NCBI GenBank assembly: GCA_964016885.1 | Contig: OZ024745.1 | Coordinates: forward strand, 75,516,001-75,580,000 | Reading direction: 5' to 3' | Origin: Eledone cirrhosa | Lineage: Eukaryota | Length of the DNA stretch: 64,000 nt | Shown here: positions 5,719 through 51,253 of the stretch, piece after piece | How positions within the stretch are numbered: the stretch's first letter is position 1 | Layout: every line of letters starts with the position of its first letter | Made by a program: the position numbers and the translations under genes | The notes under the pieces: model-generated | Seen by the model: only the letters and a program-made list of their open reading frames with translations | What the model was told of the DNA's origin: nothing | The model's database searches: none

Positions 5719-6176
5719 ATAAATGGAAAAGAATGAAACGAGATTTCTTTCATTCCTCACGCTTAGTACGGCTGATACTTAAATGTAAGTATGTATGTAT
5801 ACGTACATACATATATGTATACAGACGTACAGTAGTATGTATATATATACATACATGCACACATATATATATATGTACGTATGGGTTTACCGAACATTTA
5901 TTATAATGTTCGGTTTGTTTGTAAACAAACACACAGCCAGAATTACGCCGTACAGTGTTCAGGCAAGCATCGTCGCCTTTTTGTTCAACACTGACACAAG
6001 AACGATGTACTAGTTTCAAGCTTATTAGCTATCGTCAGCATCGTATACCTTCCTGCCAGATGATTGAACGTCTGAAAGTATATACTTTCCTTATGCATAT
6101 TAACGGCTGAGCAGCCTAATTTGCATATCGAGTGAGTTAGTCGGCCGGGCGCACCGAAAACGATAAATGGAAAAGA
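5719..6176 (-). mobile_element. Retrozyme-like non-coding element, family F2 (one 444-bp unit plus 14-bp terminal redundancy)
   Basis: ATAAATGGAAAAGA repeated at 5719 and 6163; homologous to 41925-42608 and 49234-50100; HHR on the minus strand; TA/TG microsatellite flanks. Confidence 0.88.
6002..6044 (-). ncRNA. Minimal type-I hammerhead ribozyme (F2)
   Basis: Minus strand ACGATG-CTGACGA-TAGCT(AATA)AGCTT-GAAA-CTAG-TA-CATCGT; predicted GUA cleavage. Confidence 0.85.
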
Positions 6177-6238
6177 TATATATATATATATATTTAAGAG
6201 AGTAAAACAAAGAATCCTTTAATACATCAAAAGTTTTT

Positions 6239-6283
6239 ATTAGCCGACAATGTTTCGTCCTATTAAGGACTCATCAGGGCAAT
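6239..6283 (-). ncRNA. Hammerhead ribozyme in inverted pLTR
   Basis: Reverse complement of 8623-8667. Confidence 0.85.
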
Positions 6284-8622
6284 CAAAACAACAAGAGGTA
6301 ATATCGGCAGATACAAGCCAGAAACTCTGAAGAATATGGAGTGTACATACACTGGAGTTTAGTAGCACGATCTAACCACCTTTCTGCACATAGTAAGTTT
6401 TGTAATCTCTGTATACTTGAGACACACTCTATTATTTTCTCTAGCGTACCCTTACTGAATAGAAAGTCTGAGATATTCTCTTCTTGCCCCCATGCCATTT
6501 CTAATTCTTATTTTTATTATAAACCTAAATGTTCTAGTAGTACAAATTGTACCCATTAGCAGATATATTCCATTACTTAGTTTTTTGTTTGGGTTCTTTT
6601 GTTTGCCAACATTAATGTTATCATTGGTTTTTGATGACTCTTCTTTCTAGCTTTCATAATCATTTGGCCACTGTACCATATCTATGTCTTCACTAGTACA
6701 CCTTGTTAGTATACATAAGATTACACACTTTACGCCACTTACGTTATTCTATTATTATCTTTATATTTTTTTATTATTATTAACTTTAATTTTAATTTTA
6801 ATTTTATTTTTATTTTTAATTCTATTTTTATTTCTAAGTCTATTCTGATTTATCTATCGACAACCCCCCCCCCTTCTCCCCCCCCCCCCCCATGCACACA
6901 TAAACTTATTGTCAACCCCTCCTGATTGAATATGATTATATTTAACCCCCCCCCCCTCTTTTATGCTCCGTTCTATTATTTATTATAGTATATCGAATAT
7001 ATTTTATGCCACTTCGCACCCTCCATATATTTTGTCAATTCTGTCCCCATTAGCCTACCTTAATTCTACTTAAGTCAGTTTTTTAGATATCGTTGCGTAT
7101 ATGATAGTATAATTTTATTCCTTTTTGTAAGCATTTGTAACGATACATTAAAGTTTATATACTTTAATGACTTAAACTACAGCTAATATTATACTACCTT
7201 ATTGGACGGGTTCGATATTTTTAATATTAATTTATCAAATAGGGTTTGGAGTCATTTAAAATGATTGCTTTCCTTGGTGTTTACCTAATTTCTTAAATGC
7301 ACGCGAGGCCTAAATGTGTATACATTTGCTTTTGTTTTGTAATTTCCGGTTGATTGTATTTATTTGTTTTATTCTATATTCTATTTACTATTCACTGTCT
7401 GGCTTCGCTCACTCGTCCACATATGTCTGTCTACTAACCTTGTAATTATAAGTATTTATATATTTTATGCCAATTTTAAAATATATTATATTATATTGTA
7501 TGTTATATATATCCTTATTACTTACTGTTCATTCTATGTAACATTATGATATTTAAACTTTATATATCATGTAAGATGTCTGGATTTTTTAATGTTATAA
7601 TATGTAACATTATGATATTTAGACTTTACATATCATGTTAGATGTCTGTATATTTTTTTCTGTAACATCATATTTTTTTCTGTAACATCATAATTTTTCC
7701 CTGTACCATTATAGTTTTTTTTTTTTTTTTTTTTTTTGAGTATTATATGATTTATATTTCCTCATTTATTCTGTAACCCAGTATGAATCAATTTGTATAT
7801 ATTGTTTATGGTACATGTTAATATACTGTTAGCATTTTATCATTGTATTTCATTGTGACATCTATATTGTTTCTGTAAATTAACCGGGGATTATCTATTC
7901 TATTTTATTATATTATATTGAATTATATCATTTTGTTGTTTATTATTTGTTATATGTGTTTCTTGTAATTATATCATATTATTGCCTCATGTATATTGGG
8001 TAGATGTATTAGTATTATTTTCACTATTACCATGCTTATTTTTAATATTCAAACTTCTAATAGGGCTTAATTTCTGTGTAGTCGAACATAGATATGTGTA
8101 TTGTTATATGTGTGTGTGTGTGCGTGTGTGTATGTGTGTGTGTGTGTGTGTGTGTGTGTGTGTGTGTGTGTGTGTGTGTGTGTGTGTGTGTGTGTGTGTG
8201 TGTGTGTGTGTGTGTGTGTGTGTGTGTGTGTGTGTGTGTGTGTGTGTGTGTGTGTGTGTGTGTGTGTGCGTGTGCGCGCGCGCATATATACATGTATATA
8301 TTGTACCTTTTGATTGTTAATTTGGAATTTTAATGTTGGTAAAAGTATATTATTATTATAATGTATTATATTGTGTTATATATAATTCCTGCTCTATATA
8401 ACCAAATTTGTTTAGATTTAGGTTGGTTGCTTTGGACTATATTTGTAATATGGTTCTTAATGTTATCTACATCCTTAGTTATTCTTATTATATATTTTTA
8501 TTATTTTTATCTTTATTTTCATTTTTATTATCGTATATCTTTGTAAGACATTAGTGTATGTACACTCCATATTCTTCAGAGTTTCTGGCTTGTATCTGCC
8601 GATATTACCTCTTGTTGTTTTG

Positions 8623-8667
8623 ATTGCCCTGATGAGTCCTTAATAGGACGAAACATTGTCGGCTAAT
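8623..8667 (+). ncRNA. Canonical minimal hammerhead ribozyme in PLE pLTR
   Basis: GCC-CTGATGA-GTCCT(TAAT)AGGAC-GAAA-CATTG-TC-GGC; GUC cleavage triplet. Confidence 0.9.
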
Positions 8668-9004
8668 AAAAACTTTTGATGTATTAAAGGATTCTTTGTT
8701 TTACTCTCTTAATGTTTTGGCTCTGTTTAACTGCATTGAGCTATACCTTTTACTGTCATTTCTATAATACGAAGAGGGTGTTTGACTCAAACACGCTTCA
8801 GTATTCTAATCCTTATATATATATATATATATATGTGTGTGTGTGTGTGTGTGTGTGTGTGTGTGTGTGTGTGTGTGTGTGTGTGTGTGTGTGTGTGTGT
8901 GTGTGTGTGTGTGTGTGTGTGTGTGTGTGTGTGTGTGTGTGTGTGTGTGTGTGTGTGTGTGTGAGTGTGTGTGTGTCGATCGATTGGTTATTGATTAGGC
9001 GATA

Positions 9005-9114
9005 CCCACTGATGAAGCCGCATAAGCCGATTGTGCATTGTTGCATAATATATGCAGACAGATGGTGCAGTGCACCTTACTGCTGCATTAGTGCGGCAGA
9101 AACTCGAGTCCGGG
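9005..9114 (+). ncRNA. Hammerhead ribozyme with greatly extended stem II, within a ~290-bp element (8976-9262) lying between (TG)n and (TA)n
   Basis: CCCA-CTGATGA-AGCCGCAT...GTGCGGCA-GAAA-CTCGAG-TC-CGGG; palindromic stem III, GUC site; the innermost stem I pair is mismatched. Confidence 0.72.
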
Positions 9115-48903: not shown

Positions 48904-49197
48904 CTTTGCCTTTCATCCTTACGGGGTCGATAAAATAAAGTACCAGTAATGTACTGGGTATTTGCTGGCCTTGTGCCAATAGTAGAAACAATTATTACAT
49001 TCACACCGGTGGGTTGGCAGTATCGGTAGATGGTCGGACGCCATGCGTTGCAGCAAAGAGTTACGGCCCTTTAAGGTCTGAGTTCAAATCTCGCCGAGGT
49101 TAACTTTGCCTTTCATCCTTACGGGGTCGATAAAATAAAGTACCAGTAATACACTGGGATAATTGCTGGCCTTGTGCTAAAAGTAGAAACATTTATT
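48904..49197 (+). mobile_element. S1 SINE: partial copy (48904-48996) plus full copy (49007-49197)
   Basis: S1 motifs with B box GAGTTCAAATCTC. Confidence 0.85.
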
Positions 49198-49437
49198 ACA
49201 TCCACATTTACTTATCCATATATATATATATATAAATATAAGTATGTACACGTACATACATATATGTATACAGACGTACAGTAGTATATATATATATACA
49301 TACACACATATATATATGTACGTATGGATTCACCGAACATTTATTATAATGCTCGGTGTGTTTGTAAACAAACATCCCGTATTAAGCCGTAGTGTCCAGC
49401 AACCATCGTTGCACGTTTGTTCAACACTGACAAAGGA

Positions 49438-49480
49438 ACACTGTACTAGTTTCAATCTTATTAGCTATCGTCAGCAACGT
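49438..49480 (-). ncRNA. Minimal hammerhead ribozyme (F2)
   Basis: ACGTTG-CTGACGA-TAGCTAATAAGATT-GAAA-CTAG-TA-CAGTGT; stem II weakened. Confidence 0.72.
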
Positions 49481-49792
49481 ATACCTTCCTGCCAGATTGT
49501 TGAACGTATATACTTACCTTAGGCATATTAACGGCTGAGTGGCCCAATTTGAATATCGAGTAGGTTAATCGGCGGGGTGCACCGAAAACGCTTATCGGAA
49601 AAAATGAAACGAAATTTCATTTCCCACTCTTAGTACGGCTGTTACTTAAATATAAGTATGTACACGTACATACATATATGTATACATTCGGTGCACCCGG
49701 CCGATTAACCCACTCGATATGCAAATTGGGCTACTCAGCCGTTAATATGCATAAGGTAAGTATATACGTTCAACAATTTGGCAGGAAGGTAT

Positions 49793-49835
49793 ACGTTGCT
49801 GACGATAGCTAATAAGCTTGAAACTAGTACAGCGT
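49793..49835 (+). ncRNA. Minimal hammerhead ribozyme (F2)
   Basis: ACGTTG-CTGACGA-TAGCT(AATA)AGCTT-GAAA-CTAG-TA-CAGCGT. Confidence 0.85.
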
Positions 49836-51253
49836 TCCTTTGTCAGTGTTGAACAAATGAGCAACGATGGTTGCTAAACACTGTACGGCTTAATACGGGA
49901 TGTTTGTTTACAAACACACCGAGCATTATAATAAATGTTCGGTGAATCCATACGTACATATATATATGTGTGCATGTATGTATATATATGTACATACTAC
50001 TGTACGTCTGTATACATATATGTATGTACGTGTACATACTTATATTTAAGTAACAGTCGTACTAAGAGTAGGAAATGAAATTTCGTTTCATTTTTTTCCG
50101 TTTATATATATATATATATTGGTAAACTGCAATATAACCTAACATATACTACATATATATATATATATATATATATATATATAGAGAGAGAGAGAGAGAG
50201 AGAGAGAGAGAGAGAGAGAGAGGGGGGGGGGAATAAACGCAGTCTTCATACCAGCCGAAACCAACCACCGACCCACAGCCAAAGTTGTACGAAACAATAC
50301 AAAACAAAACAATACAATACAATACAATACAAAACAAAACAAAACAAAAAGCTTTCGTAGGAAATGACATAATACGTGACAACAATAAAACAAACACAAT
50401 TTCACTTGGTGTCTGTCCTGTATGTGGAAACATTTTGTTTATTGGAGAGCAAAATGACACGTAAAGTGTGCAGACAAATAAAGACGACAGGAAGTGTTAC
50501 AGTAGCACGTTTTTGTCCAGTGATTTATGGAACTATGGAGCAAGCAACGTTGACTTATTATCCTTTTTATTATCATTATTATCATTATTATTATTATTAT
50601 TGTTGTTATTATTATTGTTGTTGCTGTTGTCGCTGTTGTTGTTGTTGTTATTATTATTGTTATATTCCAGAATGTTCTTCGGTTTGTCTCATCGATTCTT
50701 TCAGCAATATGTCAGAGGAAAACTGACAAATGTTTTTCCAAGGAATTAACGTTTCACTTCAGGCAGATATCTCTTTTATTTTGTCTATTTATCTACATAC
50801 TACACGCACACACACACCCACACAAACATATATACACACATATATATACACATATATACACATATGTACACATATATACACATATATACACATACATATA
50901 TATATATATATATATATATATATATATATATATATATATATATATACATACACACATATATATATATATATATATATATATATATATATATATATATATA
51001 TATATATATATATATACATATATACATATATATATATATATATATATACATATATACACACACATTTAGACATACATGTACACACAGACACATACACACC
51101 AGCACATATACACACATACAGCAATAGATATGTATATACACACACACAATCACACACAGAGACATATATATATATGCACACAGACACACAAACATATGCA
51201 TACACACAAGCACACACACACACATACTCTCATACATATATACACATACACAG

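Follow-up and report, generated by a model that had tools for sequence, protein, structure and literature searches.

A protein-free hammerhead repeat in Eledone cirrhosa ends at two fixed 3' sites and is probably copied by a Penelope-like enzyme

Metazoan retrozymes without long terminal repeats (non-LTR retrozymes) have been proposed to spread when a circular RNA is copied into tandem cDNA by the reverse transcriptase (RT) of a Penelope-like element (PLE) (PMC7229834; bioRxiv 10.64898/2026.07.22.740005), and retrozymes have been argued to descend from PLEs (Li, Clavereau and Pollet, 2026; bioRxiv 10.64898/2026.07.22.740005). PLEs themselves enter (TA)n targets as 5'-truncated partial tandems, together with an inverted 5' copy, and bear a tail on just one end (Craig, 2021; PMC8557442); a PLE protein cuts and extends both DNA strands, and reverse transcription starts at two adjacent internal RNA sites that bound the tail (Frangieh, 2024; PMC11167929). 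For the inverted copies, self-priming on an antisense template was proposed and a sense alternative left open (Arkhipova, 2013; PMC3846280). Here we describe F2, a hammerhead repeat that occurs three times in a 64,000-nt stretch of the Eledone cirrhosa genome (GCA_964016885.1, contig OZ024745.1, positions 75,516,001 to 75,580,000, forward strand; hereafter the window). F2 encodes no protein, can form tandems, and its copies stop at two fixed 3' sites, A and B, in (TA)n. We consider it probable that F2 is a non-LTR retrozyme copied in trans by a Penelope-like RT/GIY-YIG enzyme, with a circular monomer RNA as the likely template. Whether retrozyme circles template tandem genomic copies, as proposed (PMC7229834), and how the head-to-head, one-tail insertions of PLEs originate and from which RNA strand, questions left open in the published accounts (PMC3846280; PMC8557442), both become testable on a 420-nt substrate.

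F2 shares its general layout with the metazoan retrozymes described so far: a low-GC, non-coding unit of a few hundred nucleotides with one type I hammerhead in each, arrangements from monomers to long arrays, and tens of thousands of copies. The F2 unit is tandem and has neither an open reading frame (ORF) nor an LTR layout. Two axolotl retrozyme families also have, like F2, a weak palindromic helix III and a U-U at the base of helix II, and axolotl hammerheads with such a helix III cleave as dimers (PMC7229834). By contrast, the F2 unit lies slightly above the 170-400 nt of the 2020 retrozymes (PMC7229834); expression and circles have been demonstrated for published retrozymes (PMC7229834; bioRxiv 10.64898/2026.07.22.740005), whereas for F2 both are predicted from genomic sequence; and homology to a PLE pseudo-LTR, reported for 24 of 57 Xenopus families (bioRxiv 10.64898/2026.07.22.740005), was found for F2 in none of three PLE families. 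Endonuclease-bearing PLEs resemble F2 in their truncated partial tandems, inverted 5' copy, one-end tail and AT-rich or (TA)n targets (PMC8557442; PMC11167929; PMC3846280), and in their two internal start sites beside a stem-loop (PMC11167929). F2 differs from them in lacking an ORF, in a tail of ~60 nt rather than 30-40 nt, and in that the whole element is the repeat unit, with arms of up to ~20 units. The fixed A and B ends, head-to-head arms and putative genomic editing marks of F2 are without description in the available text of the two retrozyme reports (PMC7229834; bioRxiv 10.64898/2026.07.22.740005), and a literature search across sources outside subscription journals found no report, in the text accessible there, of the A+B rule or the editing marks set out below in retrozyme insertions.

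Unit positions are numbered on the minus strand of window positions 6162-5719; the unit is 444 nt long in copy 1 and 414 nt in copy 3. Copy 1 (subfamily a; 5719..6176, minus strand) consists of one arm, 458 nt long and made up of a full 444-nt unit and 14 nt more, with its 3' end at site A (5719) and TA/TG runs on both sides; its tail (5719..5790, minus strand), ~60-70 nt long and containing a hairpin, extends from site B (~5780-5790) to site A. Copy 2 has a left arm (41925..42179, minus strand) that spans unit 183-444 and ends 3' at site A into (TA)n, and a right arm (42180..42608, plus strand, end approximate, ~42610) that begins at unit 393, crosses the unit junction and ends at site B into (TA)n; the two arms match at 107/107 positions compared. 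In copy 3 (subfamily b), the left arm (49233..49686, minus strand) comprises one 414-nt unit plus 40 nt and ends at site B, and the right arm (49687..50100, plus strand, end approximate) spans unit 5-444 and ends at site A. Copies 2 and 3 are head-to-head arm pairs, with both hammerhead-strand 3' ends facing outward into (TA)n, in a 3.0-Gb genome with many TA microsatellites. A preliminary description of the window had placed the three copies as we do, and its remarks on arms that cross the unit junction and on terminal redundancy (here 14 nt in copy 1 and 40 nt in copy 3) are borne out. It had also seen no coding sequence beside them, and indeed no ORF of at least 100 amino acids adjoins any copy, simple-repeat frames excepted; the closest PLE-like coding remnant, 3.2 kb away from copy 1, is of another family.

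We then mapped arm ends across the genome. The first F2 set comprised 99 consecutive loci of contig C1, 79 found by a ribozyme-core pattern and 20 by a hairpin pattern; mapping also took in 28 top BLAST loci and the window copies. A young lineage was scored at 40 further-defined loci. The counts exclude arms of less than 80% identity (less than 95% in the young lineage), arms that a locus edge cuts off, overlapping duplicate loci and, at L184, two duplicated segments. On the hammerhead strand, all five window arms end at site A (unit 444; three arms) or site B (unit ~373-383; two arms). The same two sites account for 126 of the 155 arms at the 99 loci (68 at A, 58 at B, 29 elsewhere; binomial p about 1e-115), with a TA run next to 107 of the 126, and, in the young lineage, for 63 of 66 uncut arms. 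The 5' ends at the 99 loci, by contrast, are scattered and uniform by chi-square (p=0.22), with no pile-up at the cut site predicted from the hammerhead (7 vs 4.5 expected); the young lineage likewise shows none there (1 of 67 vs 2.2 expected). The preliminary description had held that F2 copies start and stop at different positions, which is true of their 5' ends and not of their 3' ends. Its reading of the copies as free circular permutations does not survive: it had named fixed termini in advance as the observation that would speak against that reading, and fixed termini are what we find at the 3' end. What looked like permutation is random 5' truncation of copies begun at two fixed 3' sites, a footprint of the Penelope-like "tail" type. 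With 3' ends at two sites, random 5' truncation, an inverted head-to-head copy, AT-rich or microsatellite targets and no RT plus GIY-YIG ORF in cis, F2 behaves, as judged from its sequence, as a non-autonomous Penelope-like element that bears the testable hallmarks of a non-LTR retrozyme, and not as an autonomous PLE.

Pairs of arms obey a strict rule. Across all sets we found 55 head-to-head pairs, and each of the 35 with both ends classifiable joins an A-ended to a B-ended arm (A+A 0, B+B 0); the 20 further pairs had one end unclassifiable or cut. In the young lineage, A+B holds for 22 of 22 scorable pairs at the 40 loci, with 4 further pairs having such an end (L175 is counted in both pair sets). 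Subfamily could be called for 32 pairs, and in all 32 the two arms agreed (23 were not callable); arm-to-arm divergence is 0.043 as against 0.059 to other loci (34 pairs, p=2e-5). These comparisons suggest that both arms were likely primed on one template, in two primings. In L1 twin priming, too, a 5' inversion results from two priming events on one RNA; F2 differs in that its arms overlap, repeating the same sequence (the A arm extends more than 30 nt beyond site B in 33 of 35 pairs), so that one linear monomer would be insufficient without strand displacement.

Many arms are longer than a monomer could supply in one reading. Among the 126 arms that end at A or B, 64 exceed one unit and 105 cross the predicted cleavage site, a fraction partly built in because 79 of the 99 loci were chosen by their ribozyme core; young arms reach 20.6 near-identical units, and arms of the sister family F1 reach 17.6 identical ones. 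Arms that cross the cut site and exceed one unit, without an accumulation of 5' ends at the cut, call for a template that is multimeric or circular. To this extent the circular or concatemeric template expected in the preliminary description stands, but the argument given for it was wrong in part: the copies are not freely permuted, and a PLE-like enzyme may act in trans, so a missing adjacent ORF is no argument against one. Together with the fixed ends and their pairing, these observations make it very probable that F2 is copied by Penelope-type priming at two sites on a sense RNA, either multimeric or circular.

To separate these two templates we turned to sequence variants in the young lineage, which has 1,187 junction matches in the genome. 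Variants at its 40 loci were split into those common to every pass covering the site (all-pass) and those in one pass only. All-pass variants occupy 15 sites spread over 10 loci; read on the hammerhead strand, A>G accounts for 9 of these sites (from 5 loci) and T>C for 2 (9 vs 2, p=0.036); among single-pass changes, A>G makes up 14 of 133 (Fisher p=3e-5). At L263, 69A>T is present in 8/8 passes on both arms, and the 8 genome matches to its haplotype all lie at that locus; 244A>G was also seen there but not kept in the all-pass count. L270 carries three A>G changes in one hairpin and one T>C in 3/3 passes on both arms, and its exact haplotype has 3 genome matches, all at L270. The three A>G changes recur on other backgrounds at 2 loci, one of which, L302, has 26 A>G and 5 T>C relative to the closest arm (3 of the 26 having been selected by the search). 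This strand-specific A>G excess suggests that sense-strand F2 RNA has likely undergone adenosine-to-inosine (A-to-I) editing. Since an edited multimer would not bear the same marks in every unit, the all-pass marks point to a monomer that was read repeatedly. The F2 copy at L302:1145-1570 is putatively hyper-edited, with changes that alter the hammerhead core.

We are inclined, if only slightly, to read F2 insertions as single-molecule records of rolling-circle reverse transcription, in which a dimeric Penelope-type enzyme, priming from both ends of a double-strand DNA cut, starts at two fixed sites on one ADAR-edited sense circle and completes up to ~20 rounds. Transcription of tandem F2 on the hammerhead strand would yield RNAs that paired hammerheads cleave and that ligation then closes into circles of ~420-440 nt, as work on coral, mussel and axolotl suggests (PMC7229834), and some of these RNAs may be A-to-I edited, as the A>G excess implies. 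At a TA repeat the enzyme would nick each DNA strand and start one cDNA at A and one at B on the same RNA, at positions flanking the tail hairpin; here the fixed ends and the A+B pairing are observed, and the enzyme itself is suggested by the footprint of family P, an autonomous PLE described below, and by PLE enzymology (PMC11167929). Each cDNA would circle 0.2 to ~20 turns and halt at random, in keeping with the observed lengths and random 5' ends, and the cDNA ends would be joined head-to-head via short microhomology or filler; the junction offsets are observed, the repair route is proposed. Single arms would have retained only one cDNA, and older arrays would have been reshaped later by local duplication and recombination. 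If true, this sequence of events would supply genomic evidence for the circle-to-tandem step proposed for animal retrozymes, and it would trace the head-to-head, one-tail structure of PLEs to a sense template primed twice instead of to antisense self-priming. The strict A+B rule and the all-pass A>G marks yield specific predictions that the established in vitro assay for PLEs can address, and they suggest RNA editing that was written back into the genome via the F2 repeat.

Several observations weigh against this model. An all-pass variant is present at only 10 of the 40 young loci, and the 9 all-pass A>G sites, coming from 5 loci, do not count as independent; the A>G excess of the older set falls short of significance (7 vs 1, p=0.07), and one locus supplies 5 of the 7. 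Genome-wide privacy covers two haplotypes, those of L263 and L270, in one assembly, which could lack a source array. The two arms of a pair show no correlation in length (rho 0.20, p=0.38, n=22). In F1, a sister family described below, one lineage has three A>G changes common to 7 loci and perfect arrays of up to 17.6 identical units, so that homogeneous genomic masters, possible concatemer sources, do exist. Arms at L103, L184, L064, L021, L262, L175, L285 and L286 are haplotype mosaics, and periodic variants at L061, L245 and the 31-mer come from local duplication; template switching, recombination and local duplication therefore also act. Finally, PLE families P, P2 and P3 contain no F2-like pseudo-LTR beyond TA-rich low complexity.

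The same two-site priming could instead have used a long uncut linear transcript of a homogeneous genomic array, with no circle involved. In vitro, the PLE protein mostly uses uncleaved RNA and does not need the ribozyme cut (PMC11167929), and 8 of 9 Xenopus retrozyme dimers stayed uncleaved (bioRxiv 10.64898/2026.07.22.740005); further, perfect long arrays exist, and mosaic arms fit mixed concatemers. An edited multimer, however, is not expected to carry the same A>G cluster in each pass, the assembly contains no source array for the haplotypes of L263 and L270, and 20-unit arms would demand an uncut transcript of >8 kb with ~20 ribozymes. On balance we find the linear concatemer rather unlikely and think that a circle was probably the main F2 template. 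Cleaved linear monomers chained by in-register template jumps at the ribozyme cut would also yield tandem arms, and one case fits: F1 locus L262 (1265-2200) switches subfamily haplotype in register within unit 164-234, just past the predicted cut at 164. The F2 switches in L103 and L184, however, are not at the cut site, 5' ends do not gather there, and jumping between different molecules would lose private all-pass variants, which makes such chaining most improbable.

The pairs themselves bear on whether two primings were needed, since a single priming might be followed by fold-back self-priming, as in the antisense-template model (PMC3846280), or by later inversion and homogenization at the DNA level. 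Lengths compatible with fold-back are seen in 20/35 pairs of the first count and 16/22 young pairs, some junctions lie at palindromes (L175, L277, L267), and older arrays do show local duplication. But the lengths of 15/35 and 6/22 pairs, with window copies 2 and 3 among them by their mapped coordinates, fit neither fold-back direction; in these pairs neither arm contains the other, so they cannot come from a single cDNA folded back on itself, and fold-back is contradicted as the sole mechanism. Further, the shared changes are A>G on the hammerhead strand and not T>C, which would make the sense strand the template. We therefore regard a single priming as very unlikely and retain two-site priming on sense RNA as the explanation of the pairs.

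Self-cleavage of F2 is predicted from its hammerhead motif. The type I hammerhead of copy 1 (6002..6044, minus strand) has a 6-bp stem I (ACGATG/CATCGT), a core of CUGACGA and GAAA, a stem II of 3 bp that has U-U at its base, and a stem III that is minimal and palindromic; the predicted cut follows GUA at unit 155, between 6008 and 6007. Copy 2 carries its hammerhead at 42347..42389 (plus strand; stem I ACGGTG/CATCGT), and copy 3 one in each arm (left, 49438-49480, minus strand; right, 49793-49835, plus strand). The exact 29-nt core has 10,718 genome matches, against 0 for a reversed control, and the F2 monomer has a stable predicted fold (z -5.6). In an alignment of 63 distinct rows, 94.5% of hammerhead cells are paired; an Rfam scan gave 0 matches at the gathering threshold. 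Stem I had been said to keep pairing despite substitutions. All four variants named for it (the two above, ACGTTG/CAGCGT and ACGTTG/CAGTGT) are present, but covariation amounts to a single pair: just one stem I pair shows changes on either side in two or more of the 63 rows (U-G 23, A-U 22, G-U 11), and CAGTGT is a single C>T change. Because the covarying pair follows the subfamilies, it represents one or two historical events.

A candidate for the kind of enzyme that would copy F2 is present in the window. Family P, which we take to be a Neptune-like PLE, is autonomous, with RT plus a GIY-YIG domain at its C terminus; its remnant at 9407-10674 has a Pfam GIY-YIG match, and many 784-codon open frames occur in the genome. 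At this remnant and at L187-L194, family P forms a tandem unit of 4,734 nt with its ORF split by a TA-rich insert or intron, and at L188 and L190-L193 its insertions are inverted, in TA runs, with one short and one long end. This footprint is identical to that of F2, which leads us to infer a Penelope-like enzyme for F2. Consistent linkage to a PLE ORF, which the preliminary description had named as evidence that would refute it, is not seen: 8 of 127 F2 loci have a PLE-like ORF match to family P queries, 7 of these matches lie 1.1-3.1 kb away, and the eighth, at L011, is an unrelated RT fragment that directly adjoins the F2 3' end. The scanned stretches of families P and P2 contain no canonical hammerhead, and the hammerhead of family P3 differs from that of F2. 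Likeness of the F2 end motifs to P and P2 is marginal (best p=0.02 among 24 comparisons), and a 14-nt likeness between the F2 A end and the P short end failed against shuffles. An old inverted pair of family P ends (window 42619-43027) has its (TA)n run in common with F2 copy 2. In a family P2 tandem at L237 (G000:C4:28494000-28503900), the inter-ORF spacer holds the family's own inverted 3' end around a TA run, in several copies.

The window also contains F1, a sister family with a 469-nt unit ~62% alike to F2, here as a 0.4-unit B arm (minus strand) and a 3.1-unit A arm (plus strand) at 697..2342. Its layout is the same as that of F2, with A+B in 13/13 complete pairs. F1 is very young, with arrays of up to 31 units elsewhere in the genome, and there are 11,273 matches to a hammerhead pattern that shares this stem III but is not that of F2. 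A triple A>G in F1 that had appeared private to one locus was rejected as such, having 69 matches at 7 loci. An octamer-like motif, ATGCAAAT, is kept between F1 (unit 34-41) and F2 (unit 37-44), where it lies in a hairpin and is a recurrent A>G site. A promoter role of the small nuclear RNA type, an idea that reportedly comes from newt satellite 2, is unsupported for ATGCAAAT: the motif is altered in the young F1 and F2 lineages, and we found no primary paper. Other inverted, hammerhead-bearing repeats lie nearby. Family Q has arms with short and long ends at 6190-6353 (minus strand) and 8553-8815 (plus strand) that enclose ~2.2 kb of AT-rich DNA without an ORF, simple-repeat frames excepted, and its end at ~6190 has one TA run in common with F2 copy 1. 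A further inverted pair, at 30559-30765 (minus strand) and 30901-~31190 (plus strand), carries a hammerhead-like motif and has one short and one long end in TA runs.

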